Assembly (NCBI GenBank): GCA_050084515.1
Contig: CM114271.1
Location: 42,284,001 to 42,348,000, forward strand
Origin: Blasia pusilla
Taxonomy: Eukaryota
Direction: 5' to 3'
DNA length: 64,000 nucleotides
The translations under genes were made by a program, and so were the position numbers. Under the pieces are notes generated by a model that had not been told where the DNA came from, made no database searches, and saw only the letters and a program-made list of their open reading frames with translations. How positions within the stretch are numbered: position 1 is the first letter of the stretch; every line of letters begins with the position of its first letter. Shown here piece by piece: positions 2,165 through 28,000 of the stretch.

Positions 2165-3674
2165 AGTTTCTGAACCTAAGGGAAATTTTAAAGGTCTTTA
2201 CAGGGAAATACTAAGTGACTTGTGTCTTCATCGAGAAGATATCTTTGCGAGGATAGCCATTGGAAGAAGAAGAACTAGTCGCCACAAATCGGCAAGCCCA
2301 TCCGCTGGAGGGTCACAGCGCTTCATCACAAAACGCTAAGAGATTTGGGTTTAGGGTCACGACGCTTCATCACGAAACGCTTCGAGGGATCTATCGTGCA
2401 CAGGAGTAGATTAGACTGTCAAGGAGGAAGAACTGATCCAACATGCACCATGACGAGAAAGGAAACACAAGCAACCAAGGTAGGGAGCATCACTCCCAAG
2501 TCCATCACGACTCTTGCGTCATCATCTCCAAGTCCTCGTTCGGCGAATAAGATAAGGCAACAAGAAATAAAGGAGCGGGAATGATATGCACAGGCACGAG
2601 GTTCTAGAAAAATGTGTTCTGGAGGAGCTCCTTCGGAGCAAAATGCCAAGGCTAAGGCATCGAAGGCCTTGAAGAAAAGAGTCGCAAATGAGACACGCGA
2701 GAAGAAGCGTCTTGACGCCTCTGTCAGAAGAGTAGAATTGGCGAAAGCTCGAAGGGAAAAAACAATCGCCAGTGAAGAAAGCCTTGCTTGTCCAACAGAG
2801 AGTGTTGAGATGCAGGAAATGTCTTCGATGAGGTCTGGGGACACCATGAATCTAAAATTGGCTGAGGAAACGGCCAAATTTCAAGTGACGGATGATGAGG
2901 TCATGAGAACAGCAAGTGTGGAGATGGTGGACATCTTTGAAGAAGCAAGAGAAGAGTCTTTTTCATCTTTGAGCCCAATGGAAGAAATCGACCTTTATTA
3001 GATCGATGAGTTTCTCGTGGACTTGCCAGCTGTTGTCCCAGAGCAGCTAGCGGGCTTGGATACTGACCCAATCTTTGAGCGGGTAAGAAAAATTTGGGTT
3101 ATGTGAAGGCTCATTATGCAACTCATTGGCAAAACATTGTATTTTATTGACTTGGTCCCCATTATGGCAGGTTGTTAAGCAGATGGCACTGATGGATGGC
3201 TAGAAGGCCCCAAGAATTCCACTTTTTCGATTGCGAACAATGGAGTCCGTCCGTGAAATTCAATTGGAAGAGGACATTGCAAAGCTCAAACAATCGGCAG
3301 CAACTGCATCCTACATCGACAGCTTCCCTTCGTTCTATGTTCAGCCTTACGATGAACATGGAATCCAGCTCTGGTGATGGAAGAGGACTTGGAGGCGTTG
3401 GATACTTTCTGGAGGATGAGAGATCAGGAGTTCAGAAGAGCGATTGAAGGAACCCAATTTAGCTGGATACGGAACCTTTACTTGTTCATGTGGGATGGAA
3501 ACCACATGTACATGGTGTGGACACAGTTTGCAGAGGAGTGACTAAATTCATTGGAGGCGCATTTTTGCGTGAAGGCAGTCGTGCTCCATCCATTTCCTCA
3601 TCACATGGCAACGGTGGAAATGGCAATGCATGCGATGAATACGTAAGTTTCCTCTTCCTTAAGTTTGATTCCTT

Positions 3675-4487
3675 CAACCCGTCGTTGTCCGACGGGTTGC
3701 ATAATTGGAAAGCTTAAAGATGGGCAAGAATGATTTGAGTCTCTTGCCACCATCCTATTTGTGGTCAATGTCATAGTCAAGCAAACCGTCGGAGACCGAC
3801 GGGTTGCCTACTGGCCAAGCACACCACATTAATCCGGGATACTAAAACCAATCGAACATCGACGGGTGGAAAAATGATAGCATGATTTATTTTTTCTTCA
3901 ATCCGTCCCACTCCAACGAGTTGTACAATGAGAGGTAACAAATCATCGGACGCCTAAAAGCAACTCGTCGGAGTCCGACGAGTTGCTGGACTGTTCGCTA
4001 TTTTTTGGATACTTTAGGCCGAAAGCAACTCGTCGGACTCCGACGGGTTGCATTTCCCCGCCAGGGTAGGTGGTTCGAAACCGATAACTCGCTTTTAGGC
4101 GTCCAATTCCAGCTTTACAGGGCCATTGCGCAACCGGTCGGACTCCGACGGGTTGATATGTGGAGTTTTTAACCTGGAAACCAAGGAATAAGAGGAACCG
4201 ATCGGTTGGACCAGAGAGTCACAAAAAGAGAGTGCAACCCGTCGGACTTTGATGGGTTGCAATTCTCTCAAGAGTGTTGCAATAAGTGTAACACAAAGAT
4301 AAGTGTTGCGACTCGTCGGACTCTGACACGTTGCAACATTTACCTATGTGTTACGATTTGGACCCCGATGGATTGACAGAATTACGATCCGTCTGAGTCC
4401 GACAGGTTGCAACACTTATCTCTGTGCTACCATTTTGACCCCCATGGGTTGACAGAATTACGACTCGTCAGAGTCCGACGGGTTGTA
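3675..4487. repeat. About 11 copies of the 27-29 bp palindrome in intron 2 of copy A
   Basis: Examples: 3960 GCAACTCGTCGGAGTCCGACGAGTTGC, 4025 GCAACTCGTCGGACTCCGACGGGTTGCA, 4233 TGCAACCCGTCGGACTTTGATGGGTTGCA. Confidence 0.9.
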
Positions 4488-6633
4488 GGAACCCGATAGC
4501 TTGGAGTATTCTTACCTTGTGTTTGGATGTGCAGGATTGTATCCGAGGGGAACGTCAGCCATCACTCGATCCAGTATTGCGATAGGGTGAGGAAGGTGCT
4601 TACGACGCACCCGGCAGAGTACAACAGATTCCTGGGCGACGATCTGGTAAATGAGATGTTGGCGAAGGGAGCTCAAATAAAAAAGAAGACCTGGGCAAAT
4701 ACCTTCATTTCCCAAGATGCAGACGTCACAATGCTATGTTGGTCCAAGATCCAGGCCGCCAAGAAGAGTGCTTTGTTGGAACTGGAGCGAAGAGAGAACG
4801 CATCAGCGTTGGAATGTGCAAAGTTTATTCAAGCTGCCGTATCTGCAGCTACAAAGTACACTGCAAGCAAGATGCAGCATTACATTGCGATTCTTAACCC
4901 CGATTTTGGCTCGGAGTTTTACAAGTAGCTCAAGGCGATAATCAAGCGCCAGCGGAAGAGAGATGAAGATCCACAGGGTCGGATCGGAGAAACAGTGTCT
5001 CTGGACCATGTGCCCAGGTTTGCGCTATCTGGGATATCCGAGTTTAGGCAAATCCGACTGATGAAAATCAGTCTCGAGGGCACTGAGGCCCAAAATTGGG
5101 TGGCACACGGGTACCCTCCGGGAGTTTCATATCCAGTGATCTCCCATTGGCTACGGGAATGGTCATTCTGGGACGCATTGCGCCTTCTCAGGAAGTTCAT
5201 AATCCTGGGTCTACAAGCGGAGCTGAAGAAGATTGAGCCAGTTCCAGAGGAAGCAAACCAAGAGGTTGCACAAGATTTTGAACTATGGCTTGATGACATC
5301 AGAGATAAGCCCATGAAAAACTCAGGATTCAGGATGATGTTCAAGAATCACATCCTCCCTCAGGCAGACCTGGATGAGGAAAGAGACACCAAAAAATGGG
5401 ATTTTGCAAAGAAGAAGCGGGATCTTCACGACCAGGAGGCCGAGTCATCTCGACAAAGAGTTGGCTAGCGGATGGTGTATAGGTACCTCATCAATTGTAT
5501 GAATGCAGGTACCTGGCAAAAATTACCGGCAGCCTGCAAATTGTGGGCTTCTCTACTTGATGGAGAGGGATTCTCCATGTACGACATGGAGATGGGACAT
5601 GGAATGTTTGACTGGGAGGTTATCAATTGTCTAATCTGGTCGGACTTCAACAACCTAGAGGACATTACAGAAAAAAATCTATGCGTGATGTATGATGCAA
5701 TGGTCGCAGGTAGGGATGACATTCCGAACTGTCGACATTCCGAACTTCCGAATCGTGAAGCCTGACAATTTTTTCCAAGGAGATGTGGAGGAGCAAGCCC
5801 TCAAGACAGTGGAGTTGGTGGCAAAGGTCGTCACCGCCAAAGACAAATCCACAGCAGGTTTGAAAGCCAAGGTGAGGGGATCGAGGAATTCCGAGCCCGA
5901 GTCTTCTAGAAAAGAGGCTGAGTCCTCAAGGCCAGAGGCGGAATCGTCCGGGCAAGCGAGGCGAGAGGGCCAACCCAGGTCCTCATCCAAGAAAACTCTT
6001 ATGGAGTCTGAGGTAACAGAGACTCCCACAAGCCTAAAGAGAAGCGAAAGCGGGAGGCGCCTCGTTCGTCCGAGGGAGGAGATAAGGATGTGGAATACAC
6101 TCCTTCATCCTTGGGCATGCATAGGGAAACAACCACCGGGGAAAATGTCCTTATTCACTTGACTCATCTTGTCAATGAGCTGCAGAGTTTCACTTCTCAT
6201 GAGTCGACACCTGCCATCGACAAATTGATCGTGTTGGTACGAAAACTCCTTCGAAACGGGCACGTCCCCTATACGGTGCATGGGGTTGTTGAGGAGGTGG
6301 CAATGGACCTCCTCATTGTGGATTTTCATTTTGGGTTTCACTTGTGGGACAACAATCCGTCTGACACTATCCCTGACTGGAATATCCTGCTTTTGTATGA
6401 TCAGATCGTGATGTTGTTTTCTTTTGCCGACGCGTATCTGAGTGACAGGGATTGTTTCTTGGTCCTCACTGGAGGGAGCGAAGAGAGCTCTTCAACCTTC
6501 AGTGCGTGAAGAGGTCGCTGAAGTGGAGGACGGCGCAATCATGGGTCATTAAAAACAAGTATCCACTCAGATCAGCGACGATTCGAGTCCGGGTAAGTCC
6601 TCTTTTTCAACAAATTGAGTTGGAACATAAATT

Positions 6634-7141
6634 CAACCCGTCGAACTCCGACGGGTTGCATCTCTGCATGCAACCCGTCGGATCCCAACAGCTTGTGTCT
6701 TTCGCTGTTGCAATGTGTCTGAAAATGACGGGTTGCAAATTCACCAACAAGTCTCCATTGACTCCAACCCGTCAGAACACAACGTGTTGCAAGTAGCACT
6801 GCTTTTCCACATGTTTCTGGAGTCATGCAACCCATCTGAAAGCAACAAGTTGTTCTCATATTTGGAAATTCTCAATTCTAAACAATTGTATTCAGTTGTA
6901 AGCCAACCATCGGACTCCGACAGGTGGAGGTTTTGTCCAGCAAGATGAGCAACCTGTCGGCTTCCGACGTGTTGCTCATGGCCAACTCGTCGAACTCCGA
7001 CAGGTTGCTATTCTGTCAGGCCTATAGGCTAAGTTCATAGGGATTGGTAATCACTATGGACTAGTATGATGGGTTGAAAAGCAACCCGTCGGACTCCAAC
7101 AGGTTGCTCCTCTGTCTAGCCAAATGAGCAACCCGTCGGAT
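6634..7141. repeat. Palindrome cluster in intron 3 of copy A
   Basis: Examples: 6634 CAACCCGTCGAACTCCGACGGGTTGCA and 7081 GCAACCCGTCGGACTCCAACAGGTTGC, plus several degenerate or half copies. Confidence 0.85.
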
Positions 7142-8267
7142 CCTCACGTCTACTAGCTTTTTCTTTTTGCTGACATTATTTTCCACCGGCTTGTTTATAG
7201 ATGGATCACTCATTTGTCTATTGCTTTGTAAGGCCCGAGCACAACTTCCAAGTGTTCAAGATCCCGGATCCAGTGGATCCATGCTCTAATGGGTACAGCT
7301 TAGATAGTCTCTACAATTCCCCCCCAGGAATTTACATGCAGGATGGGACCCCCTTACTTGGAGGAAGGGAGAAGTCACCTACCTTGATGCAAACGCTCAT
7401 CAAGCTCTGCTTGAGGCCGGGTGACTTGGTCTTTGACTTAGTGGGCCCATCAAGGGCGAGTATCAAAGGCGCCTAGCATAGTGGCAGGAACATTCTCTGC
7501 CTTGAGGGAAGGCCAGAACTTTTTGACCTTTGCAAAGAGGCAAAGGCGGATTACGAGAGGCTAGTGGGAGTATACAACTCTCCTCCAAAGCCAATAGCTC
7601 CAGTTCCAGAACCACCATTGATATTGACACCATCATCACTTCCTACTATTCCAAAAATTGGGAGGGCAAAGCCGACAATAATTCTGGAAGAGCTATCAAA
7701 TGATGACGAGTGAGTTCAAAGATTTATTGGACCCAGCTTGAGTGAAGCATTTTGGAGTAGGAATTTAGTGCTTTCCAAGGACGGAGCACATATTGATACT
7801 GCATGGGTGTCACCTTGCAGAGCACACAAGATTTACTGTCGAGGAAGGCGTTGGGAATCAAATCATGTTACATGGGACCATTATGGTGTATCTAGGGGGC
7901 GGCCAAGGCTCTCAAATTCCCCAATATTTATGATCCCCGTCTACAATCGGCCAGAGGAGCCACTTGTATCCCAAGACATTCCTTTTGTACAGGAACCTAG
8001 GAGAGTTAGGAGTAAATTTGTAGATGACAAGGTTGAAGAAATCATAAACTATATTTCCAAGCTTCCCTCGGATGTAATAAAGGACAAGAAGTTTTTGAAC
8101 CATGATGGTTTTTGTAAACTTTTTCTGAATTGTTTTTCGTTCTTGTCGATTGTAACCTGTCGATTCCGACGGGTTGCTTTACCTACCTAATTTGCAACCT
8201 GTAGGATTGCGACGGGTTGCAACCTTACACTTGGACCACATACTTGGAAAAAATGGACAAAACTCAC

Positions 8268-10277
8268 TTGCCGCATAAAGTTTTCCCATTGCCTCATACA
8301 CACGGTCCACCAACTGAGCCACCAACACAACTCTTTGTATTTCCCCTCAATCTCATGTTTTCTCCACCACAAATGAAGCTCTTCTTGGCACTCCATGGCT
8401 TGTTTCAAGGTTTTGCTATCCTTGCAGCGTTGAAGTAGAGCTACATGCTCTATTTTCTTAGTCTCCTTGATGGAGGATTTTGTGTAGCGAATCACAGACT
8501 ATTGCCAATTGAAACCATCCGATCTTTCCCTTTCTAGTTGAACCCCCAAAAAAAAAAAACACTTCCCTGATCCCAATCCATCCCGGTTTGGCATTTTCCA
8601 CCATGAAACCATATATTTCAGGAGGAGGTCTTTTGTTTTCCATCACCACCTCCAGTAAGAGTAACCAACACATCTTCAATTTGCCAACATCTGCCGCTTT
8701 CACCTCACCCAAAAAAATGGTTTTGAGACCCTTTTCCACATGGTTGTAAACGTATGCACGCATGGTCAACCATCCATTTAACACCCTGTAGCAAATATCA
8801 AAGCTAACCCAGCTCCCAGATCTTCTCCCTCCTTCATTCTGTCAATAAGATCCAGGCTGCTAGACGGGCCTGTAGTAGACATTTTGAAGACATAAGCTCT
8901 AGATCCCTCGCCTCCTTGGCCCATGAACTCCCATCTCTCGATGGATGGAAACCGTGAGTTGGCCTTGATCCTGGAAATGGCATTCATTTCTGCGCTCTTT
9001 CCATCAAGTATTCGTATTTGATGCAGTAAGTTCTTGAAGCTTTCATGATCAGCCAAGAATGCAAATTTTCCCACAATTGCTTCTCCTCAACTGGGGTGAT
9101 CTCCCCTTGGCCAAGGATACCCAGCTGTTGTTCACAAACTTTTGATGTAGTTGTCAATTTGATCACTCGTGGCTTTGATCCTGGAGAATTTTTATACATC
9201 TCGGCCACTTTCTATGCCACATCCTCCTTGATGTGTCTCTAAATTGCACCCGTGATAGGATGAGTGTGAGACCCAACATGAATTTCCAACCTTTTATACT
9301 CACACGTAGAATTGGAGTCGTGCACTATGAAAAAAATATAAGCCGGAAAAGCTCTAAAATAGAAAGAGGAGGCTTGACAGTGCGGATATCGATGGCCACC
9401 CGGAAATATGGTCGTACCCACAACGTAAGGAGTTTTTGCATTTTTGGGAGGGAATTGGGAAGTATTCACGACTCTGTTCCTCTGGAGGAAGGGGCATCCT
9501 AGAATTTTTCACTCCAATGCTCCAAAGCATTGGCAACGAGACACAATCCAAGGACCACCTAGGATTGAAGCGCTCGTCCGCTGCAGTGTGCACCATCGAT
9601 GACAGTCCAATTTTTCGGTCCATACCCTTCAGGCCGCCTCCATCTTTCTTCTGAGCTGGAGCGACAAGTGGAGGCAGCTCAAAAATGCAGTCTCCATCAT
9701 ACGTTGCGGGTAGCTCATCCACGATAATGTGCTTGAACAATTTCAAGGGGGGAGAAGAAAGCAAAGAATTCCCTGAAACTTGAAGCAGGAAAGAGTCAGC
9801 AGATGTTGAGTTAGACATGTTTCCAACAAATCCTATGAGATCGACGATATCCGAGATGTCCACAGCTTCAACTGTGACATTTTGTGCTTGTGAAATTGGA
9901 GTTGATGTTGGATCGGCCAAAGCAGCCGTGCCAAAGATGGAGCATGGAGCACTCAAAGGTCTCGGACCATCTTCATGTGTCGAAGTGGTGATCAGAAGTA
10001 AGCCATAAACTCTGAATTGTCCATTGGAGTAGGGAAAGAGGTTCCACACTTTGGAGCCTCCAATCTCCGGTTGGATTGTTTCACCAATGATATCATCTTG
10101 CCCATCAACCTTGACATCCTTGGATACAAAGATGGTTTTAATCTGGAGAAGAAATCGGAGTGAGAGGAAATGTTCTTCGACAATTACATGAATGTCACTA
10201 GATTGGGCTCGAATTATCTCCGATTGAGGAAGGCCCGCTAGATGACTGCCACATGTGAGCTTCACATAATTGTCCAT
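8268..10277 (-). pseudogene. MULE-type transposase, copy B (GCM-like Zn domain plus N-terminal DDE part; 3' part missing)
   Basis: Reads MDNYVKLTCGSHL...FKHIIVDELPATYDGDCIFELPP...HVGSHTHP, then RAYVFKMSTTGP...FDICYRVLNGWLTM...GFMVENAKPGWIGIREV. Ends at a GT donor (8267). Homologous to 13199-17167. Confidence 0.75.
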
Positions 10278-10526
10278 TTGGTAAGACCAAGAATGATTGC
10301 CAAGATAGAGGAATAAGAATAAGAATAAAAATAAAAATGTTGAATTTATAGTGAATAGTGCCTGTTTAAATTCTGACAGAATATGTCTGACATGGTGTTG
10401 GTAGTTAGGTGACTAGACTTTCCAGAAAGGAATATTCGAACATGTTGCTAGTGGGAAAGGATTTGCATGGCTTCCTTGAACCTGTGGAAGCCAGACCGGT
10501 TGGAATATCGACTCAAGGGAAAGGTC

Positions 10527-11285
10527 AACCCGTCAGAGTTCGACGGGTTGGAAACCGTCGGCAGGGATGTCGAAGGAACGAACCCTGAACTCATGTTGTC
10601 AAGTTGAATCGAGTTTGGGGAGGGCCGGTTCAACCCTTCGGAGTCCGACGGATTGCAAATTCTTGCACTCAAAATGGCGCTCCCTTAGGTTCAGTGTCTG
10701 GGTTCCGCAATCCCTTAGGTTCCGTGCAACTCGTCGGAGTCCGAAGGGTTGCACGAATCAGGCTGAATGGTCCTTGTCAAAGCCGTTGGAGTCAGATGGG
10801 TTGCACGGGATACAAGTTGAGGGAGCCCGTGCAAGCCTTTGTGGTGTGACGGATTGCAAACGTGGGCATGATCAATGGTCCCCATACAACCCGTGGGAGT
10901 CCAACGGGTTGCATAAGAACCAGGCTAGATGGAGGAACGGGTTGCAGGAATTGTGAACGATGAACGGTCCACGTGAAACCCATCGGAGTCCAACAGGTTG
11001 CAGGTTACCCAGGCTGGATGGGCCCTCTGCAACCTGTCGGGATTCGACGGGTTGCAGGATCTGAGCAGGATGACTTCCTACAACCCGTCGGGGTCCGACG
11101 GGTTGCAAGAACTGAGCAGGATGACTGCGTGCAACCCGTCAGAGTCCGACGGGTTGCACGTCGAGTCCTGGGCATTGCAATTGCAACCTGTTAGGCTCCG
11201 ACATGTTGCAGGCAGACCACGCATAACTTGTACCGTAAGGGTTCACCATCGTACAGCTGATTCCCTGTCGGACACCAACGGTTGA
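10527..11285. repeat. Regularly spaced palindrome array (51-55 bp period) between divergent transposase and ParB-MTase genes, copy B
   Basis: Palindrome starts at about 10725, 10776, 10830, 10885, 10974, 11028, 11079, 11130 and 11182, with roughly 22-26 bp spacers that are partly related to each other. Confidence 0.9.
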
Positions 11286-11517
11286 GTCCAACAGCTCCGA
11301 AAGTATACAAGGACGAGTTTCAAGGCTTTTCACTATTCCATTCTATACTTTTCTGCACTGCTTTCAAATCCCCTGTTCACACAAATACAAAAACTGAGTT
11401 TCCAATTACTCGGACATTTCGACGGTCATTGTCTCTTCATTTTGGGGCTATAACGGTTCGAGTTGAATCGATTCTTTTCAGAGGAAAAGAATCAATTCAA
11501 TTCTCAACTTATTTCAG

Positions 11518-12372
11518 GATGATTTGAAAAAAAATCCAAGCAAGCAAGGTTGGGAGCTTCTAGCCCAAGTCAGGCGGAACTCCATCTTCTGTTACGCAAC
11601 GCACGCCCGTAGATGTACCGCGAGCGGGAAATTGAAATGAGGAAGCACGAAACGTTGGCAAAACTTGCTTTGGAGAAGCTCGAAAAGCAAGAGGAGAAAC
11701 GAGAAGTGAAATTTCTCGCAGATGCAGAGAAGGACGAGAAGAAATGCATGGAGCCCAAGATCAAGCAGAAGAAGAGGCACGATACCGCCTTCCGGGAAGT
11801 CGAACTGGCAAAAGCAAGGAAGGAAAAGGCAGTCGCTGTAGAAGAAGAACCCTCCCAACGACCCACCAAGAGTGTGGAAATGGAGGATGTGTCATCCATG
11901 AGATTGAGTGGTCCAATGCAAGAGACCAATATTGATGAGCTTCCAGCGACCAACAAGGAAGGTGTTAGAACCCCGACTGTCGAGATCATGGAGATCTCGG
12001 AAGGAGAAGGAGAAGAGTCTTCTGGATCTCAAAAGCCTGTTGAAGACTTCAATCTCTTTGAAATTGAAGAGTTTCAAGAAGACTTGCCGGATGAGGCTCC
12101 AGATCTAGAGTAGCTCGTTGGACTTGATATGGACCCAATTTTCAAGCGGGTAAGCATTGTTCTACAATTCTCTCTTCATTGCATTAGTGCCAGTCATTTT
12201 GGAAATTGTGCATTGATTGTGTGACATTCGTGCAGGTGGTGAAGGAGATGGCACTGGTTGATTGCCCGAATGCCCCGAGGATTCCTCTATGCCGACTCCG
12301 AACGATGGAATACATCAAAGAAATCCAATCAGAGGAAGACATTGACAAGTTAAAGCAGTGTGTGGCAACAGC
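11518..12372 (+). pseudogene. ParB-MTase fusion gene copy B, 5' part only (divergent subfamily), cut off in exon 2 by a TIR
   Basis: The ORF at 11613-12113 is homologous to exon 1 of copies A and C (ELAKARKEKA, SVEM..SSMR). It has the same intron position (AAGCGG|GTAAG ... GCAG|GTG) and exon 2 VVKEMALVDCPNAPRIPLCRLRTMEYIKEIQSEEDIDKLKQ. Confidence 0.8.
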
Positions 12373-12381
12373 TTTAGAGCT

Positions 12382-18270: not shown

Positions 18271-18277
18271 CGAAAAG

Positions 18278-18285: not shown

Positions 18286-18547
18286 GGCAAGGGTTCGCTC
18301 ATTTCTGGTTTTTCGTGTCGTGATATTGATTGCTCTTCCGCGCAGCAGCTGACCAGATACCAAGGGGCACTTTACACAGTGACTCATCGCGAGACTCATC
18401 GCAAGACGATTCGAGCGAACGATCACGAGATGATTCAAGCGACTCATAAAGGATACACTTCACGACATCAGCAAGGCGACTCATCAAGGCGACTCATTGT
18501 GCACAGAAAGTAACTTTGTTGTCGAGGAGGAGGCATTTTTTGGAACA

Positions 18548-21500
18548 ATGACGAGGAAAAAATCTCAAGCAAGCAAGGGTGAGAGCTTCACTCCTAGGTC
18601 CATGAGGACTCCTACGTCACCATCTCCAGGGCCTTGTTCGGCCAATGAGATAAGGCAACAAGAGATCGAGGAGCGGGAAAGGGAAGCGGAGATGCACAGG
18701 CAGGAGCTTCTTGCAAAATGTGTTTTGGAGGCGCTTGAAAAACAGAATGCAGAGGTTGAGGCGTTGCAAGCCTTGAAGAAAAGGATCATCGAGGAAAAGC
18801 TTGAAAAGAAGCATCTGGATGCATCGGTGAGGAGAGCAAAATTGGCAAAAGCTCGAAGGGAAAAAAGCGATTGCTATTGAAGAAAGCCCGGCCAAACCAA
18901 AGTGTTGAGATGCGGGAAATGTCCCCGATGAAGTCCGGGGACACGATCAATATAAAATTATCTGAGGAAACGGCCGAGGTTCAAGTGACGGACGATGAGG
19001 TCATGGGGACCGCCAGCGTGGAGATGGTGGAGATCTCTGAAGAAGCAGGAGAGCAGTCTTCATGGTCTCTGAGCCCGGCGGAAGAAATCTACCTCTGTCG
19101 GATCGACGAGTTTCCAGTGGACTTGCCAGCTATTGCCCCAGAGAAGTTGGCGGGCCAAGACACCGATCCAATCTTTGAGCGGGTAAGAAACGATCTTGGA
19201 TCTTTGAGTTATGTGAAGGCCCATGTTTCAATTCCTTGGCAATTCAGTGTAGTTTATTGACTTTGTCCCCGTTGTGACAGGTTGTAAATCAGATGGCACT
19301 GATGGAGGGCAAGAACGCCCCAAGAATTCCACTTTTCGGATTGCGAACAATGGAGTACGTCCACAAAATTTAGTCTGACAAGGATATTGCGAAGCTGAAA
19401 TAGTCGACAGCGACAGCATCTTCCGTAGACAGTTTCCCTCCGTTCTATGTCCAGCCTTACGATCAACATGGAACCCAAGCGTTGGTCACGGAGGAGGACT
19501 TGGAAGCGCTCGACACATTCTGGAGGATGAGAGATCATGAATTCATAAGAGCGATTGAGGGTACGGAATTCAGTTGGATGCGGAACCTCTATTTCTTCAT
19601 CTGGGATGGAAACCACAAGTTCATGGCGTGGACTTAGTTTGTAGAGGAGCGCCTAAATTCATTGGAGGCGCATTTTTGCATGAAGGCACTCGTGCTAAAT
19701 CCATACCCTCATCACATGGCGACGGTGGAAATGGCCATGCATGCCATGAACACGTAAGTTTCCTCTTCCTTTTTTTATGATTGCTGCAAACCGTCGGACT
19801 CTGACGAGTTCTTTAACTAGTGGTAACAAAACATCGGATGCCTTAAAGCGACTCGTCAGAGTCTGACAAGTTGCTTGAATGGCCGCTCTTGTTAGGATGT
19901 TTTTGGCCGAAAGCAACTTGTCAGAGTCCGAAGAGTTGCTTGACTGGCCGCTCTTTTAGGATGGTTTTGGCCAAAAGCAACTCGTCGTAGTCTGACAAGT
20001 TGCTTGACTGGCCGCTATTTTTTGGATGTTTTTGGCCGAAAGTATTGCATTCGCCGCCATGGGCAGGTGATCGGTGTAGGGGAGCTTGATTTTTGGCGTC
20101 AAATTGCAGCTTTACTTGAAATTGCGCAACCTATCGGACTCCAACGAGTTGGTATGTTCACTTTTTCCGCGGAAACCACTCTCTCAATACAAATCATCTG
20201 ACAACCTGTCGGAGTCCGACGGGTTGTAACCAGGCAATCACAAATCTGAATGCAATCCGTCGGACTCCGATGGGTTGTAATATTTAGCTCTTAGCTACCA
20301 TTTCGACCATGAGTTGTAGCGACCTGACGGAGTCCGACGGGTTGCAAGAACCCATGTAGCTTGCAAAAATTCTTATAGTGTGTTTGGATATGCAGGATTG
20401 TATCCGAGGGGAACGTCACCCACCACTGGATCCAGGATTGCGATCGAGTGAAGAAAGTGCTAACGACGCACTGGCAGAGTACAAGGGGTTCTTGGGCAAC
20501 GCTCTTGTTAATGAGATGTTGGGAAAGGGGGCTCAAATCAAAAAAAAAGACTTGGGCAAATATATTTATTTCACAAGATGCAGCCGTGACAATCCTTTGC
20601 TGGTCGAGGATACAGGCCGCCAAGAAGAGCGCTTCATTGGAGATGGAGCGGAAGGAGAACCTGAGTGCGTCTGAGCATGCTAAGTTCATCCAAGCTGCAG
20701 TGTCTGCAGCTACAAAGTACACTACAAGCAAGATACAACACTACATTGCCATTCTCAACCCCAAACTTGGCCCCGATTTCTACAAGGAGCTGAAGGCCAT
20801 AATCAAGCACCAGTAGAAGAGGGATGAAGATCTGCAACGTCGGATTGGGGAGAAAGTGTCTCTTGACCGCGTCCATAGATTTTCCTTGTCTAGAATTTCG
20901 GAATTTAGGAGAATCAGACTGATGAAAATCAGTCTCGAGGGCACATAGGCCCAAAAGAGGGCGGCACACCATCCTCCGGGTGTCTCTAATCCAGTGATCT
21001 CCCACTGGCTTTGTGAATGGTCATTCTGGGACGCGTTGCGGCTTCTCGGGAAGTCCATGCTTGTGGGTCTCCAAGAGGAGCTGAAAAAAATAGAGCCAGT
21101 TCTGGAGGAAGCAAACCTGGAGAGTGCTGAAGATTTTTAACTTTGGCTTGATGACATCTGGGACAAGCCCGATCTTGCTAGACTTGAACGACCCCAAGGA
21201 CATCATCGACAAAAATCTTCGACGGGTGTATGATGCAGTGGCTAAAGGTAGGGACGACATCCCAAATTTCGTGCACCTTGAAGAATTTTTTGAAGGAGAT
21301 GCGGAGGAGCAAGCCCTCGAGACAGTGGAGCTGATGTCCAAGGTCGTCACCGCCAAGGACAAATCTACAGCGGGTCTGAAAGCAAAGGCGAGGGGATCGA
21401 AGAATTCCGAGGCCAAGTCTTCCAAAAAAGAGGCTGAGAATTCAAGGCGAGAGGCAGAATCGTCGAGCGAGCAGGGAGAGAGGGCTGGACCAGGTCCTCC

Positions 21501-22118
21501 ACCAAGAAAACTCCAAGAGAGTCCTAGGTAATAGAGACCCCAACAAGCCGACCGCAGACTCGGGAAAAACGGAAGCAAGAGGCGCCAGGTTTGTCCGAAG
21601 GAGCAAACCAGGATGTGGAATACACTCCATCATCCTTGGGAAGACATAGACAAACAATGATCCGGACGAGAGTCATCATTCCTTACACGAATCTTCTCGA
21701 TGAGCTGCAAAGTTTCAATTCCCAAAAGTCGACACCCGCCATCGACAAATTGACAATGCTAGGACAGAAGCTTCAACGAAACAGGAAAGCTCCCTGGACG
21801 GTCCATAGGGAGGTCGAGGAGGTGGCGGTGGATCTCCTCGTCGCTAATTTTCCCTCTGGGTTGCGCTTGTGGGACGACAATCCGTCTGACAGTGTCCCAG
21901 ATTGGAAGGTCCCTCTTACCTATGACCAGATCGCGCTCCTGTTTTCCTTTGCAGATGCTTATCTCAGTGACAGGGGTTGTTTCTTGATCTTGACTGGAGG
22001 GATCGAGGATGAGCTCTTCAACCTGCAGTGCGTGAAGAGTTTGCTGAAGTGGAGGACATGGCAATCGTGGGTCCTCAAGAATGAGTTTCCACTCCGATCA
22101 GCGACGAGTCAAATCCAG
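18548..22118 (+). pseudogene. ParB-MTase fusion gene copy C (internal deletion near 21170; last exon missing)
   Basis: Same exon/intron layout as copy A, with a palindrome-filled intron at 19754-20395. Reads YFFIWDGNHKFMAW (19602), VDLLVANFPSG (21846), YLSDRGCFLILTG and WQSWVLKNEFP, then a GT donor followed by palindromes. Confidence 0.75.
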
Positions 22119-22305
22119 GTAAGGGCTCTAAATCCATATACAATTTGTCCTCGTCTGACGGGTTGCATCTCTGCATGCAACCCATCAGATCGTCTGAGCT
22201 CGTGACTGCGATGTTGCAATCCGTCTAAAAGCGACGGGTTGCAAATTTACCACAAGTCTCCATTGGGTAAATGCGACCCGTCGGAAACCGACGGGTTGCA
22301 TTTCA

Positions 22306-22850
22306 AAGACCTTCGCATTTTGGATCCAACCAAAGATTGATGTCAACATGTATCCGTAGAAGGTAGATGATCTCAATCCACTATTTTTGTTCGAGTCTAG
22401 GAATGGGATGAAGCGAAACAGAATGTGTAGGCTAACGGTGGAAAGAGCAAAGCGAATCGTATCAACTCGAGAGGCAAGCATGGAAATCATCGCCACAAAA
22501 GATGTTCATAGTGGCAATGGAATAGGAAGGATGTATTGGGTCAGGAACAACATTGTGAATTCAAGTGTCACAGGGGTGTATGTGGTACACATCTATTGCT
22601 TTCCCACATGTTCCTGTGATGACTTTGTCCAAAGAGAGACAAGTGGGAAAAGGTATTTCCCTTGTAAGCACATGTACTATGTGTTGCTTGTAGTTTTATG
22701 AGAGTCGGAGGTAGGAGTAGGAATCCACCAACCAATTTTGTCCCTAAAATAAGTGCAAAGTATCCTGAACAAACCACTCTAAGGATGCAACATGAGGTCT
22801 TACTATGTACTTTGAAGTGCCAAAATGTCCACTATGAGCTTCAACTCTAA
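22306..22850 (+). pseudogene. Inverted copy of the transposase SWIM-finger 3' end
   Basis: ORF 22387-22701 (FESRNG...CSCDDFVQRETSGKRYFPCKHMYYV) is nearly identical to the reverse complement of about 13150-13685. Confidence 0.85.
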
Positions 22851-22879
22851 TCAGCAAGGGAAAAATGATGCATTACTCA

Positions 22880-23133
22880 AGAAACTAGGGTTTCTTACCT
22901 ATTTTTCTTTATTTCTATTAATAGAAAAAAATTCCATCTATCTAACCCTATATTGCATCAGGATACAATATAGGGTTAGATAATCCTAGTAACGCTACTC
23001 CATAAACCACCGACGTCATATTACTATGACTCCTTCGATGTCTAAGTCCGAACCATCAATCTAGGCTTTTCCTCACACAAGGGGGCCGATCAGATTAACG
23101 ATGCTCAGAGAAGTGGATGTTAAGAATCCAACA
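22880..23133. repeat. Dispersed repeat fragment, inverted homolog of 51937-52170
   Basis: Shares GAACCATCAATCTAGGCTTTTCCTCA and GAGAAGTGGATGTT..GAATCCAACAC with the reverse complement of 51937-52170. Confidence 0.8.
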
Positions 23134-23169
23134 CAAAATCTGTCGTGAGGGGACAAAGGAGGAGGAGAA

Positions 23170-25070
23170 GTTTGCACACCACCCACAAAGAGTTTCGGAC
23201 CCCGTCCTCTCTCAATGGCTAAGAGAATGGTCCTTCTAGGATGCGTTGCGGCTTCTCAGCAAGTCCATTATTGGGAGTCTTCAAGCCAAGCTTAGGAAGA
23301 TTGAGCCAGTTTTGGAGGAGGCTAGCCTAGAATCAATTGAGGAGTACGAACTGTGGTTGAAAGAGGTGCATGATAAGCCAGTCAAGAACCTAGGATTTTG
23401 GATCATGTTCGTGAAACACATTCTACGATAATGGAATGTCGACGAGGAGGAGATTAGCGACCCCAAACAAAGAGATTTTTCCAAGAAGAAGAGAGATCTT
23501 CTTGAGCAAACGGCCAAGTCCTCCCACCAATGAGCCACACAGGGGATGGTGTACAGGTTCTTCGTGTACAATGTGAATGCAATACATGGAGAAAGTATCC
23601 AACCACCTCAAAAGTATGGGCTACGCGTCCAGATGGTGAATGATTCTCCATGTACAACGTGGAGATGGCTCAGGAGATAACGGGATGGGAGGTTCTCAAT
23701 TGTGCACTCTAGTTGGACTAGAACGAACAAGGGGAGATAAATGACTACACCTTGATAGCCTTCCATGAGGCTGTTGTGGGTGGCGAGGAGGACATACCCA
23801 ACTTCTTGATGGTTGAGGAGTTCTTTGAGGTTGATGTAGAGAAGTAAGCCCTTGAGACCACAGATCTGGTGTCCAAGATGGTCACAGCCAAGGATAAGTC
23901 AATGGCGGGCCCCTTGGAGAAGGCCAAGGGGTCCATGCAGTGTGAAGCTAGATGCTCAAGGCGGGAAGGATGGGCAAGGGGGGGCCCAAAACAAATTCTT
24001 GTTGATTCGGAGGTTATAGAGACCTTGACAAGCATGCATCAAATTCATGAGAAGCAAAAACACGAGACCATAGTTCCTCGAAAGGAGGAAAAACATATGC
24101 TAAATACCCCCCTTTCTCTTTAGGCAAGCAAAGGGATGGCACGAGTAGGAGCACAATCCTCCTCCATCAAGCCTCTCTGTTGGATGAACTTCAGAAATTC
24201 TTGAGTGAGGAGTCCACAGTTGCCTTGGAGAAGGTGACATTGTTAGGACGAAAGCTTAGAAGAAACGGCCACGCCCCATGGACTATGAATGGGGAAGTTG
24301 AGGATGTTGCAATGGATCTCCTCATTGCAAATTTTCCATCCGGATTCAGGTTGTTCCTTGATGATCCACTCAACCTTGTCCCGGACTGGAACTTGCCACT
24401 CACGTACGATCAGATCGCGTTGTTGTTCTCCTTCGCAAACGCGTACATGAGTGATAAGGGATGTTTCCTTGTTTGACTAGAGGAAGCGCAGACGAGAGTT
24501 AGATCTGCTTTTCAAAGCTGACAAAACATTGTCTTCCTTGAGTCAAGGACATAAATTTTTGCACTCTCCCATGAGGTCTACGCGGATTACTAGAGGCAAT
24601 TGAGAGTGTTCTAGTCGCCTCCACACCAAAATGCACCTGTAAAAGAGCCATTTGTGGTGATACCATCGTCACTACCTGTAATTCCAAAAATTGTGTGGCA
24701 AAGTGAGCGATGATTTTGGAAGGGCTCTCACATGTTAACAAGTGAGTGCATTTAAGCGTTGGTTTAAAAGCGTTTTGGAGCTAGGCACTAGTGGTTTGAA
24801 GTGGAGGAATACATATTGATTCTGAATGGCTGTCACTTTGCATAGCATACAAGATAACTTGTTAGGGAAATTTTTGGAAAAAATCTCCGATTACATGGGA
24901 TCAATATGGTGCACCCAGGGGCAAGACTCTCAAATTCCCCTTCTTTTTCAATCCCCATCTACAATTGTCAAGATAAGCCACTGTTTAGCCCAAAAAAGTC
25001 CAATGTACAGGAATCCATGAGAGTTAGGAACAATTTTGTAGATAACGAGGCAGAAGAGATCATAGACTAA
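23170..25070 (+). pseudogene. ParB-MTase gene copy D fragments (older, more diverged)
   Basis: KIEPVLEEASLESIEEYELWL..DKPVKNLGFWIMF and MDLLIANFPSG...YMSDKGCFLV are homologous to about 5110-6500. About 24880-25070 is homologous to about 7870-8060. Confidence 0.75.
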
Positions 25071-28000
25071 AGTTTCCATTATAAATAAGCGAGTTCCAAA
25101 AAAATTTTAATAAAACATTTGGATGTATTTATTAAACTTTGATGGCTCTAGTTTTGAATGGTGAAGTTTTTTGGGTATTTTTGGAGTTTTTGAAACTTTG
25201 AAACTTGTTGTTTTGGAATCCATGTATGGTTTTTAAGACCGCCTATAACTCGTCAGATTCCAACATGTTAAAACTTGATCTTACCCCTAAGAGTCATGTC
25301 TCACGACTGTTCCTCTTGATGTCATGTCTTGCAACCTATTGGATTCTGATAGGTTGCATGTCTAAATGGAACCTCGGTATTTCCTAATATTTCTTCATAT
25401 GGATGTTTCCTTCTTCTTACCCCTTTTTGCTTACATCCTAACATGCAACCTGTCTGATCTTGACAGATTGTGGGTCCGAATGATTGCCTCCTATTAATTT
25501 TACTCGCTCTTTCTTTTTTCTAAACTCTGATCCGAATGGGACCTGTAGATTTCTTGTCATAACTTCACATGAATGCCAGGTTTTTTCCTTCAATTTTTCA
25601 GTGGTCATGTCTTTTCTCTTATTCCTTGTTTTTTTCTTCTCTTTGATGAGTCGTATCTTCCAACTCTTCCTCTACTTGTCATATCATGCAACTTGTTGGA
25701 TTCCGACAGATTGGTGGGATGAATGCTCATCTTTTTTCCTCTTATTCCTCCATTTACTTCAAACCATACTTTTCCAACATCTGATTTTCTAAGAGGTCGG
25801 AAACTTCTCTTCCCTTCTAATATCCTGCAACTTTTGGCATTCGGACAAGTTGCACGAATGACTTCTGGGATCTGTCATTTATCAAAATTTATTTGTAATT
25901 TTACATTATGACAAATTTTTTTTGCAACTCCCAACACAAGTTCTCATTTCCTTCATCTTGTTGGCTTCCTTCACTTCTGAGATATGTGTTTAACCAGAGT
26001 TGTCAAACATCCATCAACCTAATAAAGGACTCCATATAGCCATTACTTAGCCAAGTCTTGTATGTCATCTGTGGCCTCCAAATCTTTTGAGTCATTTGTG
26101 GCAATATTGAAATCCTCATTTTATACCAACCTCACATCCACACTATTTCCTTACTACTTTGTGTACCCTCTCCTTCCAAGTTCAAGTCCATCTTTAGTAT
26201 CCATTTTTTGCATGTAGGTTTCTAACAAACTATAGTGAAGGAATAAAGGAGTTTGTGAGACTCAATGAACCTATCAGAAAATCACCTCTCTCTTTTAATT
26301 CCTTCATCTCCAAGACTATCATCACTTATTGACTGCAATAATAATATACCCTCGTGTTGGCTTACAAAGAAATTTGATAAAAATCTGGATTACACAAAGT
26401 GTGATGTAAGCATGTTTGAAGTGGTCTTCATATTTCTATCTTCAAATCCTAGTCTCAAAAAAATAAGGCTAGTTTTTTTCCCAATCTGGTCCACTTGTAA
26501 CTCTCTTGTAAACCTTTCTTGCATTTGAAGTAGAGGAGCATATTAAGAAATAGAATGAAGTTTTGAAGGGAGGGAGCGGATTTGGCCCTATTTTTAGAGG
26601 ATAGACTCTCCTCTCTTCCTCTCTCCTCCTAGAATACAAGCCTCCATCCCATTCCCAAATGTCGTGCCATTTGTAGTCATTTTGTGCCGCCAATGTCGTA
26701 CCGTACCGCTAAACCCGCACCGCACATCGATCACATTCGAGTATCTTCAATACCAGAGGAGTACAACTTGTTAATTGGAGAAGTTTGTCTTCAAGACTGA
26801 GTTGGTATCGAGTTTGCACTTGCAAAGGAGCGACACCAACACTCTTCAAGTTATCCATTATGGTCTTTTGCCCTACACGTGTGAGGGGAATTCTAGGTAT
26901 TGGGTAGTTATTTGGGATATTGGGTTTTTTTGCAGATATTGTGAGTACCTCTGATGTATATGGTTTATGAGACATAGACCTCTGTGGGATATCTAGCGTT
27001 GAGGATAATTTTTCAATGAGATGATAGGATAGTAGCGATCTGCGGCACCACGCCGCTTGCTGCCACATAATACACGTCTCAATGAGAGGGAGTGTAAGTT
27101 GAGTGTCGCATGTTTAGACTAATTGCAGTATTACTCGCAAGATTGAGAGTGATCGTGGAAGAGGGGCACGAGGGTCATTGTGGCTTCCTTTCGAGACTTT
27201 GAGAGGCAAGGCGGAGTGGCACGAGGTTTCGAGGATCTCCACCTGAGGGACCGCCCCGATCTCTTTCAAAATAGTCCTCATACAAGAGGGAGGGTGTAGA
27301 GGCGTGTCTTGGTGCATTACCGTACATATTGAGCGGTCCTACCACTTGGGCATATGAGATGGACGAACTGGGTACCATAGAGTTATACGACTTCATTGCT
27401 TTTGGATTTCAAAGCAATCCATCAAAATCTAACGGATCGTTTTGATGCCTAAAAAGAAACCCATCGGATTTCGACGGGTTGAAAAGGTAAAAAAAATTTC
27501 CAAAAAAAATTTCACCACAAAAAATATATATGTATTCTGCCTTCGCAACTCATCAAAATTTTCCTTTCTCCAACTTGATAGAAACCCTCTTCAAATTAAG
27601 AGAGCCCTAGGGGTTGCAAATATGTTCCTCTCTACTCCCTCCTCTTTGCCTCTCTCCTCTCTCCTCTCTTCCTCCCCTCCTACCGCTCCTCGCTAGGAAC
27701 TCTAGAGAGTTCAAACCATTCACGGCAAGGAACGGCATGTTCCATCACTTAGAGGGGGCATCCATGGACGATAACCATGACTTTTCTCAAAGATATGCGC
27801 CTGAGATTGAGGCTGGAGACTCTACTATAACTCGCATTATGTGTCATGGACTAAGCCCTTCCCAAATGAGGAGGAGCTAGGATAGGCTACTTCTTTTGCT
27901 ACTACTGATGTTCTAGGAGGGGTGAGTTGGATTGGGGGGCAGTTGAATTGTCCGGTTCGTTTTGCCTTAGGTTCAAACTCGTGGTTGAATTCTTTACAAA

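Follow-up and report, generated by a model that had tools for sequence, protein, structure and literature searches.

The 64-kb window of Blasia pusilla analysed here (the whole stretch of DNA) contains a repeat unit made up of a minus-strand transposase-like gene, a palindrome array and a plus-strand accessory gene. The locus raises the question of whether these parts belong to one mobile element, and what the palindromes and the accessory protein would do for it. The initial annotation had proposed a MULE transposon with a ParB-DNA methyltransferase fusion as cargo. Our analysis favours, with a probability of roughly 0.6, the view that the region holds the remnants of a single family of cut-and-paste DNA transposons with two genes each, present in at least four copies that are broken and rearranged; the palindromes would be the element's own cis sites.

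Organization and past coding constraint of the copies

The full module was found twice in the window, and the accessory gene alone, without a transposase, was found at two further positions (copies A and D). The features were as follows.

2450-7710, plus strand: accessory copy A, near-full and the most complete; 74-80% identical to copy C (self-blastn), also recovered with P0002 and P0003 as tblastn queries; exons inferred at 2450-3082, 3171-3642, about 4535-6592 (disrupted by in-frame stop codons and by frameshifts) and 7201-7710
3171-3642, plus strand: exon 2 of copy A; equivalents at 19278-19754 (copy C) and 12188-12385 (copy B)
3674-4486: array in intron 2 of copy A, nine sites at up to six mismatches
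6012-6592, plus strand: first half of the methyltransferase (MTase)-like domain, copy A; copy C equivalent at 21528-22118
6633-7107: array in the last intron of copy A, eight sites at up to six mismatches
7201-7710, plus strand: last exon of copy A, with the motif I-like end 'KSPTLMQTLIKLCLRPGDLVFDLVGPS...' and one in-frame stop
8261-12385: module 1 (T1, array, copy B)
8261-10404, minus strand: transposase T1, exon 1 only, cut at the intron; 73-75% identical to 15215-17307, found by tblastn with P0001
10525-11209: array between T1 and copy B, ten sites at up to six mismatches
11613-12385, plus strand: accessory copy B, open reading frames; truncated after exon 1 and the first part of exon 2
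12441-12796, minus strand: transposase N-terminal fragment, a recent local duplicate 92% identical to 16546-16901
13199-22300: module 2 (T2, array, copy C)
13199-17307, minus strand: transposase T2, pseudogene; exon 1 about 15186-16961, intron 14759-15185, exon 2 13199-14758
14825-15078: palindromes in the T2 intron, five sites at up to six mismatches
17343-18103: array between T2 and copy C, including a 66-67 nt tandem repeat that contains the one perfect site
18548-22118, plus strand: accessory copy C, pseudogene, cut at about 22300 and without the last exon (self-blastn, tblastn)
19786-20345: array in intron 2 of copy C, eight sites at up to six mismatches
22296-22855, plus strand: inverted fragment of the SWIM-coding transposase end, 88-90% identical to 13139-13697
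23135-25078, plus strand: accessory copy D, partial, having lost most of the MTase-like domain's second half to an internal deletion

In total, this one 64-kb window held four accessory copies, two full modules and two extra transposase fragments (12441-12796 and 22296-22855). Every element copy in it was broken, and all were pseudogenes. The module had been described as present in at least four diverged copies; this held for the accessory gene, whereas the complete module occurred only twice.

The accessory exons were joined by splice sites that were conserved among copies A, B and C and phase-compatible, so that the frame was held across the palindrome-filled introns. Intron 2 of copy A had the donor AC/GTAAGT at 3643 and the acceptor ...TGTGCAG/G at 4534, and its last intron, in phase 0, had the donor CGG/GTAAGT at 6593 and the acceptor TTTATAG/ATG at 7200. 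Copy B kept the donor CGG/GTAAG. The T2 intron was placed where the homologies to L005 and to P0001 leave a gap.

We then compared the copies by dN/dS. The values were 0.10-0.34 in frame and 0.5-3.2 out of frame, indicating that the copies descend from once-coding lineages. Exon 2 was the most constrained accessory exon (0.10-0.28 for A against C, 0.13-0.16 for B against A or C). Copy B gave 0.13-0.25 against A and C, with 0.16-0.25 at a dS of about 1.4-1.7 against C, and T1 against T2 gave 0.18. The fragment at 12441-12796 was near neutral (0.64). Since two units diverged under coding constraint share the same gene order and orientation, the two-gene arrangement predates the dead copies.

These data also bear on the possibility that the accessory gene is a host gene or a Pack-MULE-type captured fragment, lying beside transposase remnants through nested insertion or local duplication, with the arrays as an unrelated satellite or MITE-like repeat. 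The only database relatives of the accessory protein, P0002 and P0003, are annotated as ordinary hypothetical proteins on Riccia chromosomes; the region is strongly rearranged, with local duplicates 92% and 90% identical; and a search of the 64-kb window for TIRs and target-site duplications found none, and no TIR-bounded copies. However, the order of transposase, array and gene recurs in two units whose genes were both under purifying selection as they diverged to a dS near or above 1, which is better explained by separate insertions of diverged lineages than by duplication of a dead segment. Moreover, four copies of the gene, all pseudogenes, lie within 25 kb, and the palindrome, present in introns of the transposase and accessory genes alike, is missing from the rest of the window (36 kb). 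We therefore regard this explanation as improbable. The claim that these parts form a transposon-like unit, which combines a transposase gene and a large accessory gene with non-coding arrays of one palindrome, is supported.

The palindrome and its arrays

The palindrome has a 27-nt consensus, GCAACCCGTCGG-N3-CCGACGGGTTGC, with 24 specified positions and four CpGs. Allowing three mismatches, we found 28 sites, where 100 shuffles averaged 0.00; allowing six of 24, we found 57 sites, against none in each of five shuffles. All sites were confined to 3674-27456, and the remaining 36 kb of the window had none. The divergent gene pair shares an intergenic array of 0.7-0.9 kb, and the palindrome also fills one transposase-gene intron and two accessory-gene introns, confirming the earlier observation that it recurs in introns of both genes (accessory, 3674-4486, 6633-7107 and 19786-20345; transposase, 14825-15078). 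The arrays have tandem periods of about 51 and of 64-67 nt, and a single site, 17744-17770 in the array between T2 and copy C, matches the consensus perfectly.

Among the 204 mismatches at the 57 sites (six mismatches or fewer), 128 were C>T or G>A. The eight CpG positions, of 24 specified, carried 98 of the 204, and 78 of these 98 were C>T or G>A. The palindrome was absent from all five short metagenome loci searched, of which only L004 and L005 are transposase relatives.

The palindromes might instead act through a hairpin or cruciform, as a source, in intronic transcripts, of hairpin RNA and of small RNAs or as replication or recombination hot spots behind array turnover, or they might be functionless self-propagating tandem repeats. 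As DNA, the hairpins were stable (-12.8 to -16.2 kcal/mol, z -5.4 to -6.7), the lowest value being in the array at 17343-18103. A palindrome was found at three rearrangement junctions (8194-8220, 13008-13034 and 22273-22299), at the last of which the fragment at 22296-22855 meets accessory copy C, and the period and length of the arrays vary among copies. However, the palindrome sequence was kept while the spacers were unrelated, across lineages with dS above 1, which points to selection on the sequence beyond self-complementarity alone. The position of the arrays, in the region of the divergent promoters, suits a cis-regulatory or binding role, and Rfam gave no family match for the palindrome. 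A purely structural role thus appears unlikely.

The transposase and the accessory protein

The transposase-like protein is about 1,100 aa long, with a conserved Cys/His-rich N-terminus, a DDE-like layout of acidic motifs and a C-terminal CxC...CxH (SWIM-type) motif. In T2, exon 1 encodes the Cys/His-rich domain and the first and second acidic motifs, and exon 2 the E-motif region and SWIM. P0001 matched T2 at E 4.6e-58, and one tblastn segment with it spans 16748-15186; relatives were found on metagenome contigs L004 (E 1e-43) and L005 (E 3e-69). The alignments conserved the motifs WV.FD, GFM.(D/E)(N/E)A..W, RERS and TNLAES. The profile libraries gave no match to MULE, GCM, Transposase_mut, hAT or any other transposase family, and a purpose-built HMM and hhalign gave none to IS256. 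From the SWIM-DDE-GCM MULE assignment, SWIM retains a weak, below-cut-off Pfam match in T2 (E 0.012); the labels 'MULE' and 'GCM' have architecture and motifs behind them and no profile match.

The accessory protein, also about 1,100 aa, consists of a Lys/Glu-rich N-terminus, the constrained exon, a long, mostly helical middle and an MTase-like C-terminus. Its closest relatives are two Riccia (liverwort) proteins, P0002 and P0003, which share the helical middle and which phmmer matched to the first half of the MTase-like domain. A palindrome-filled intron interrupts this domain in copy A. The last exon matched Pfam N6_N4_Mtase (PF01555) below threshold (E 0.013, 15.9 bits; cut-off 26.7), its residues 57-112 falling at 165-220 of the 221 profile positions, at the C-terminal end with motif I. 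A purpose-built N6_N4 HMM scored it at 7.0 bits, which none of 500 shuffles reached. For the exon of the first half, 29 of 30 Atlas matches fell in the MT-A70 set (top score 0.90); this half drew no signal from a purpose-built MT-A70 HMM or from hhalign. The claim of a beta-class MTase-like gene is thus sustained in part, by domain order, the PF01555 match, the shuffles and the MT-A70 lead, and lacks an above-threshold match. The sequence suggests that the C-terminal domain derives from a beta-class (N6_N4 / MT-A70-like) amino-methyltransferase, with a motif IV-like part first and a motif I-like part last.

Copy A has a motif IV-like 'DFHF' in the first half, followed by 'DCFLVLTGG' and 'WVIKN', and copy C has 'ANFPS'. 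At the position of (D/N/S)PP(Y/F/W), the copies in the window have NFPS or DFHF and the Riccia relatives have DLPT or DLPK, so that all five aligned sequences deviate. Motif I reads LVGPS in copy A, the only copy carrying it; its exon is whole only in this pseudogene and present in part in copy D. With the catalytic tetrapeptide replaced, the MTase-like domain is probably inactive, and the proposed writing of 4mC/6mA is weakened.

The ParB half of the proposed fusion obtained no statistical support. The accessory gene had no ParB match in Pfam, NCBIfam, PHROGs, PADLOC or PDB sequences; in the Atlas there was none either, the best exon 2 score (0.80) being to an unnamed cluster; and neither an HMM of 30 ParB proteins nor hhalign gave a signal. 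Exon 2 matched no other protein family in these searches either. Two AlphaFold models, with mean pLDDT of 41.9 and 43.5, gave no fold support for any domain. Exon 2, under strong constraint, contains 'IPL..L....' and 'WDGNH' stretches that we take to be reminiscent of ParB/Srx. About 450 mostly helical residues lie between exon 2 and the MTase-like domain, whereas prokaryotic ParB-MTase fusions are compact. A true fusion, which would load on the palindromes in the manner of ParB at parS and write 4mC/6mA to mark the element or shield it from 5mC silencing, would fit the beta-class C-terminal domain, the four CpGs per palindrome and the CG 4mC of liverwort sperm (bioRxiv 10.1101/2021.02.12.428880), and the pairing of ParB_N with N6_N4_Mtase is real in prokaryotes (one of 30 N6_N4 ORFs also matched the ParB HMM; phage ParB-Tls loci with MTases are described in PMC4738411). 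Given the missing ParB signal, the intervening helical residues, the altered tetrapeptide and LVGPS as motif I, we consider it very unlikely.

Comparison with known systems and a proposed role

We compared the two-gene transposon with described systems. VANDAL21 (Hiun) MULEs of Arabidopsis likewise combine a transposase, accessory gene(s) and short motifs as tandem repeats in non-coding DNA, and VANC targets form tandem repeats that vary between related VANDAL elements (PMC5735166). However, VANC is not methylase-like, whereas the C-terminus of the Blasia accessory protein is a degenerate MTase-like domain of the beta class; the Blasia motif is a 27-nt palindrome with four CpGs, its arrays are also intronic, and binding and anti-silencing are putative here. 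En/Spm (CACTA) is also a two-protein system (TNPD and TNPA) with many copies of a short motif, and TNPA recognizes many subterminal copies needed for transposition and regulation (PMC2613891). In the Blasia element, where binding is putative, the proteins come from two divergent genes and not from alternative splicing, the sites are intergenic and intronic and not demonstrably subterminal, and we found no CACTA termini and no Transposase_21/24-type Pfam match.

Prokaryotic and phage ParB_N + N6_N4_Mtase fusions and ParB-Tls methylases share the beta-class amino-MTase domain order. The Blasia gene differs in its lack of a detectable ParB, its lost catalytic tetrapeptide, its helical insert, its introns and its place within a eukaryotic transposon. 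Iyer, Zhang and Aravind (2016) described a chlorophyte-type Dam with a ParB-type HTH, an inactive MTase of a DIRS1 retrotransposon and Trichomonas Dam near transposons (PMC4738411). These lineages show that amino-MTase domains of bacterial type have precedents in eukaryotes, in some cases in association with mobile elements and in some without catalytic activity, although none of the cases compared here is a land-plant DNA transposon with such a domain or palindrome arrays. Marchantia MpDN4MT1a/b, sperm N4-cytosine methyltransferases acting at CG sites (bioRxiv 10.1101/2021.02.12.428880), are, by description, also prokaryote-type amino-MTases of the liverwort lineage; they are host genes expressed in spermiogenesis and keep TSPPY, which the Blasia domain lacks.

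It is reasonable, by analogy, to liken the Blasia palindromes to the sites of VANDAL/VANC or of En/Spm TNPA. The palindromes would be multi-copy cis sites for an element-encoded protein, for which the transposase Cys/His domain and accessory exon 2 are candidate binders. The MTase-like domain would more likely be a DNA- or cofactor-binding module than a writer of 4mC/6mA, and host methylation of the CpG-rich palindromes may have led to their decay through C-to-T changes. As modelled on the action of TNPA at the subterminal repeats of En/Spm and of VANC at repeats in VANDAL21, binding to the palindromes may assemble the transposition complex, control the divergent promoters and confer resistance to silencing, or some of these.

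Two genes in diverged copies

We compared the first 28 kb of the window with itself. The results showed two genes in diverged copies, an accessory gene on the plus strand (copies A to D) and a transposase-like gene on the minus strand (T1 and T2).

Copies and fragments of the two genes
2450-7710, plus strand, accessory copy A (self-comparison)
11613-12385, plus strand, accessory copy B, an N-terminal piece
18548-22118, plus strand, accessory copy C, 74-80% identity to copy A
23135-25078, plus strand, accessory copy D, a fragment with an internal deletion
8261-10404, minus strand, transposase-like T1 (self-comparison)
13199-17307, minus strand, transposase-like T2, 73-75% identity to T1
12441-12796, transposase fragment, 92% identity to part of T2
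22296-22855, transposase fragment, the inverted 3' end of T2, 88-90% identity

The initial annotation had described a repeated module of transposase, palindrome array and plus-strand gene in at least four copies. The unit order held in two units (T1 with copy B, T2 with copy C) and the plus-strand gene has four copies, but the complete arrangement was found only twice. Stop codons or frameshifts were present in every copy of both genes.

Coding constraint was measured as dN/dS. Between copies A and C, the ratio was 0.10-0.34 in frame over six segments, versus 0.59-1.77 in the two other frames, and an independent protein-guided count gave 0.11-0.33. Copy B compared with A or C gave 0.13-0.25 at a dS of about 1.4-1.7. 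For T1 versus T2, one segment gave 0.18 and another 0.42, the latter not clearly apart from one off-frame value. On this sequence evidence, both genes were once truly coding. The transposase fragment with 92% identity had a near-neutral dN/dS of 0.64, indicating that it is a recent local duplicate.

Splice sites of the accessory gene were shared between copies (a slash marks the junction). The short first intron kept the donor CGG/GTAAG in A, B and C and the acceptor CAG/GTTGT in A and C. The first palindrome-filled intron had AC/GTAAGT and TGCAG/GATTGT in A and C with the frame kept, and the second, of phase 0, had G/GTAAG in A and C and TTTATAG/ATG in A. These shared sites indicate that the accessory gene was most likely a single gene, some 1,100 codons long, with the predicted splicing. 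An extra exon at 7201-7710, downstream of the second array of copy A, contained '...KSPTLMQTLIKLCLRPGDLVFDLVGPSRASIKGA*HSGRNILCLEG...'.

The larger accessory ORFs matched no Pfam family. When the 225-aa ORF at 21528-22205 was run exhaustively with phmmer against 1.84 billion representatives, it found two relatives, P0002 (E 3.8e-11) and P0003 (E 3.7e-6). Both come from the genus Riccia (R. sorocarpa and R. fluitans) and are annotated as hypothetical; their gene models begin after exon 2 and end before the last exon. A word-index protein search with the same ORF gave no match. We also used a profile of alignment A2, which covers the first half of the methyltransferase-like domain in copies A, C and D, P0002 and P0003; it retrieved P0002 alone and found no relative among viral contigs. 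An AlphaFold model from the P0002 alignment (5 sequences) had a mean pLDDT of 41.9.

Outside the two genes, the minus-strand ORF at 58018-58974 carried the NAD-binding domain of ferric reductases (PF08030, E 1.4e-12; PF00175, E 5e-5) and probably belongs, as an exon, to a host oxidoreductase gene of the FRO/RBOH type. Self-comparison also showed short local tandem duplications at 33228-33726 (69% identity) and 62061-62339 (88%).

Palindrome arrays and unit ends

The palindrome, GCAACCCGTCGG-N3-CCGACGGGTTGC, occurred at 28 sites with at most 3 mismatches, versus a mean of 0.00 in 100 dinucleotide shuffles, and at 57 sites with at most 6 mismatches over 24 specified positions, versus 0 in each of 5 shuffles. 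All 57 sites lay inside 3674-27456, with none in the other 36 kb of the window. The common spacer was AGT or ACT, so that the site is in effect a 13+1+13 palindrome. These counts and the following positions bore out the initial annotation of palindrome arrays with sites in the introns of both genes.

Palindrome arrays
10525-11209, intergenic, between divergent genes
17343-18103, intergenic, between divergent genes
3674-4486, plus-strand gene intron, copy A
6633-7107, plus-strand gene intron, copy A
19786-20345, plus-strand gene intron, copy C
14825-15078, transposase-gene intron

A host or captured gene lying beside an unrelated satellite appears improbable next to this distribution over introns and divergent intergenic regions; one point on its side is the pair of Riccia proteins related to the accessory gene. 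The tandem periods were about 51 and 64-67 nt, and arrays of different units could not be aligned outside the palindrome. The DNA hairpin predicted for the palindrome had an energy of -12.8 to -16.2 kcal/mol, and Rfam gave no match on window positions 1-30000. Palindromes driven by such structure, with no protein partner, are an unlikely explanation of the arrays.

We then classified the mismatches to the consensus. C>T or G>A changes made up 128 of the 204; 98 of the 204 fell at the eight CpG positions, 78 of them as C>T or G>A. Methylated cytosines that deaminate in a silenced repeat would be expected to leave such a pattern, which would point to host methylation of the element.

Long terminal inverted repeats (TIRs) and target-site duplications (8-11 bp) are given for Mutator-superfamily elements in passages of a survey (PMC6446971). 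Neither was found at the approximate unit ends within the window; blastn-short between unit ends returned palindrome and low-complexity matches only. Two candidate TIRs were rejected. The 477-nt inverted repeat 13221-13697 / 22296-22772 flanking unit C copies the SWIM exon to another place, starting mid-ORF, and is absent from the other copies. The 45-nt inverted pair 12798-12842 / 27646-27690 is AG/CT-rich low complexity, and it may have set the end coordinate of the initial annotation. AG/CT-rich tracts at 12798-12842, 17230-17290, 27646-27690 and 29935-30333 translate as SLSL/FLFL runs.

Three inter-unit junctions fell on a palindrome (8194-8220, 13008-13034 and 22273-22299), suggesting recombination between arrays, which would act as recombination hot spots. 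Two other repeats were seen. Four partial copies of a family unrelated to the palindrome element (1182-2164, 44202-45457, 48737-49509 and 50394-51287) shared about 78-86% identity, and the one at 1182-2164 adjoins copy A at its 5' end, where it has probably cut the unit short. A 261-nt repeat at 22874-23134, between the inverted SWIM fragment and copy D, matched 51936-52169 in reverse (78.5% identity) and probably represents part of another repeat family.

Domains of the two proteins

To characterize the transposase-like gene, we searched its read-throughs against protein and metagenome sequences. The read-through 15459-16961 (minus strand) matched P0001, a transposase relative of 690 aa, at E 4.6e-58 and 33% identity, and the metagenome scan found related transposases on the short contigs L004 (E 1e-43) and L005 (E 3e-69), neither of which has informative flanking sequence. 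L005, of 3.5 kb, carried a seemingly intact relative at 359-3397 (plus strand), as ORFs of 396, 120 and 462 aa with short gaps between them, and no palindrome array in its 3.5 kb. Pfam gave no match of any family, the MULE core (PF10551 / PF00872) included, to P0001 and the ORFs of L004 and L005 (E up to 10) or, SWIM apart, to the window ORFs of this gene (most searched at E up to 0.1), and neither our IS256 HMM (17 prokaryote ORFs) nor hhalign gave a signal for the transposase. SWIM (PF04434) matched 13199-13834 (minus strand) at E 0.012 and 15.6 bits, under the cut-off of 19.6, with the CxC...CxH pattern present. No Pfam match to GCM, FAR1 or DBD_Tnp_Mut was obtained in 16131-16535 (minus strand), P0001 or the L004 and L005 ORFs; P0001 and T2 shared a conserved Cys/His-rich block (C226, H227, C252, C258, C263, C300, H302, C303, C313, H340, H344 and H346).

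The transposase alignments contained 'WV.FD' and 'GFM.(D/E)(N/E)A..W' about 67 residues apart, and 'RERS' followed by a variable D/C-x-x-H/Q/N and a helical stretch. 'TNLAES' in L005 corresponds to 'NTSGAQS' in the dead copy T2; at the putative Glu, we take it to recall MULE/IS256. About 26 residues after the putative second Asp, P0001 had D-C-F-H, L005 C-L-F-Q and T1 D-G-F-N, with His, and hence the C/D(2)H signature, retained in only one of the three. In sections of PMC3942029, the C/D(2)H of Mutator-superfamily transposases lies 11-19 aa beyond the second Asp, and the Glu is preceded by a long helical insert; a C-terminal SWIM zinc finger is given as common, not universal, in a table of PMC6446971. 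The AlphaFold model of the L005 transposase part (5 sequences) was poor (mean pLDDT 43.5), with helices after the second Asp at about 78-92; the VIA wide fold search with it gave generic helical matches only (best Z 6.6), which we treated as meaningless. The motif layout and the sub-threshold SWIM match resemble Mutator-superfamily transposases, and the minus-strand gene is, by its sequence, a DDE-type transposase-like gene possibly of this superfamily. Of the SWIM-DDE-GCM MULE transposase first proposed, the DDE-like layout and a sub-cut-off SWIM remain, but no MULE or GCM profile matched.

The only Pfam match of the last accessory exon was N6_N4_Mtase (PF01555), at E 0.013 and 15.9 bits, under the cut-off of 26.7; residues 57-112 aligned to positions 165-220 of the 221-position profile, at its cofactor-binding end. 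With our own HMM of 30 bacterial N6_N4 ORFs, this exon scored 7.0 bits, a value reached by 0 of 500 shuffles (top -0.2), and it was unscored by our MT-A70, ParB and IS256 HMMs. The first half of the domain was not recognized by the N6_N4 HMM (-0.4 and -3.3 bits). In the feature-based cluster search Atlas, 29 of the 30 matches of the 225-aa ORF belonged to the MT-A70 set (top score 0.90, 170 of 256 features in common). MT-A70 (PF05063) had no Pfam match to the larger accessory ORFs, and neither hhalign nor an HMM built from 30 bacterial MT-A70 ORFs recognized the family in the first half of the domain.

The stretch '(I/V/M)D(L/A)(L/M)(L/I/V)..(D/N)(L/F)(P/H)' lay about 190 codons upstream of '(P)GDLVFDLVGPS', with a phase-compatible intron between them. 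We labelled the first stretch motif IV from our own reading and the Atlas lead to MT-A70. The motif IV-like region thus comes first and the motif I-like region last, which is the order of the beta class, and the C-terminal domain likely descends from a methyltransferase. The catalytic (D/N/S)PP(Y/F/W) was canonical in none of the five A2 sequences, which had NFPS (copies C and D), DFHF (A), DLPT (P0002) and DLPK (P0003), and motif I read LVGPS in the single copy having it. Because of these residues, catalytic activity is doubtful, and the domain has probably lost the ability to transfer methyl groups. The beta-class methyltransferase originally read here is thus retained in its domain order and sub-cut-off PF01555 match, but lacks an above-cut-off match and the catalytic tetrapeptide.

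Exon 2, which the initial annotation called ParB-like, was the most constrained part of the accessory gene and was interrupted in every window copy.

Exon 2 of the accessory gene
3171-3642, plus strand, copy A
12188-12385, plus strand, copy B
19278-19754, plus strand, copy C

Some of its stretches recall, as we see it, ParB/Srx. ParB_N (PF02195) had no Pfam match at E up to 10 to the exon 2 read-through or its stop-free ORFs, and no ParB match for exon 2 was found in NCBIfam, PHROGs, PADLOC or PDB sequences. All 1,353 window ORFs, and exon 2 directly, were then scored with an HMM built from 30 bacterial ParB proteins; the copy C read-through was unscored and three other exon 2 pieces scored -0.6 to -2.5 bits. 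Comparison of exon 2 with ParB by hhalign gave a probability of 0.2%, the best Atlas match of a 77-aa stop-free exon 2 ORF (0.80) was an unnamed Streptophyta cluster, and no homologue of exon 2 was found. With every one of these sequence tests negative, the ParB claim is unsupported, although exon 2 may still have such a fold. An active ParB-methyltransferase writer, as first proposed, is very unlikely, its beta-class domain order standing beside a lost catalytic tetrapeptide and an unmatched exon 2.

A possible two-gene transposon and its significance

From the observed anatomy, palindrome statistics, coding constraint and weak family matches, we infer binding, domain role and mobility as follows. 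The copies would belong to a two-gene cut-and-paste transposon family whose palindromes are its own cis sites, bound by an element protein (probability about 0.6). The multiple palindromes of the divergent promoter region and of the introns would all be such sites, and binding of the element protein to them would build the transposition complex, regulate or protect transcription, or both. Passages of the literature describe TNPA as acting likewise at En/Spm subterminal repeats (PMC2613891) and VANC targets as forming tandem repeats in VANDAL elements (PMC5735166).

A more specific version, taken as a whole, is decidedly unlikely: intact members would encode a sequence-directed epigenetic module, in which the accessory protein docks on the CpG-rich palindromes through its constrained N-terminal exon, ParB fold or not, and the methylase-derived domain writes an amino-methyl mark, or reads or occludes one. 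The divergent promoters would thereby be kept free of 5mC silencing, and the cargo may share ancestry with the prokaryote-type amino-methyltransferases responsible for 4mC in liverwort sperm.

In full-text literature searches, no plant DNA transposon was found described with cargo of this kind. The main text of a MULE survey contains 'methyltransferase' 0 times and gives accessory ORFs of other kinds (PMC6446971). A catalogue of eukaryotic amino-methyltransferases describes, in part of its text, ParB-HTH-linked Dam in chlorophytes and chytrids, inactive methyltransferase domains in DIRS1 elements and, in Trichomonas, Dam linked to transposons; the same portion, supporting information aside, does not mention palindrome-array plant transposon cargo (PMC4738411).

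Two-gene plant DNA transposons with a motif-recognizing accessory protein (En/Spm TNPA, VANDAL VANC) are key models for self-regulation of mobile elements and escape from silencing. Three features are new here: the accessory gene probably comes from an amino-methyltransferase of bacterial type, the repeated site is a CpG-rich palindrome of great regularity, and sites are placed in introns of both genes. This cargo and site architecture is unusual, but all copies are dead, the ParB part is not established and the catalytic motif has been lost. The window has only dead copies, from whose sequence the functional roles are predicted. If intact copies exist in this or related bryophyte genomes, they would provide a testable case of a transposon with a methylase-derived module, and could bear on the origin of liverwort amino-methylation systems.
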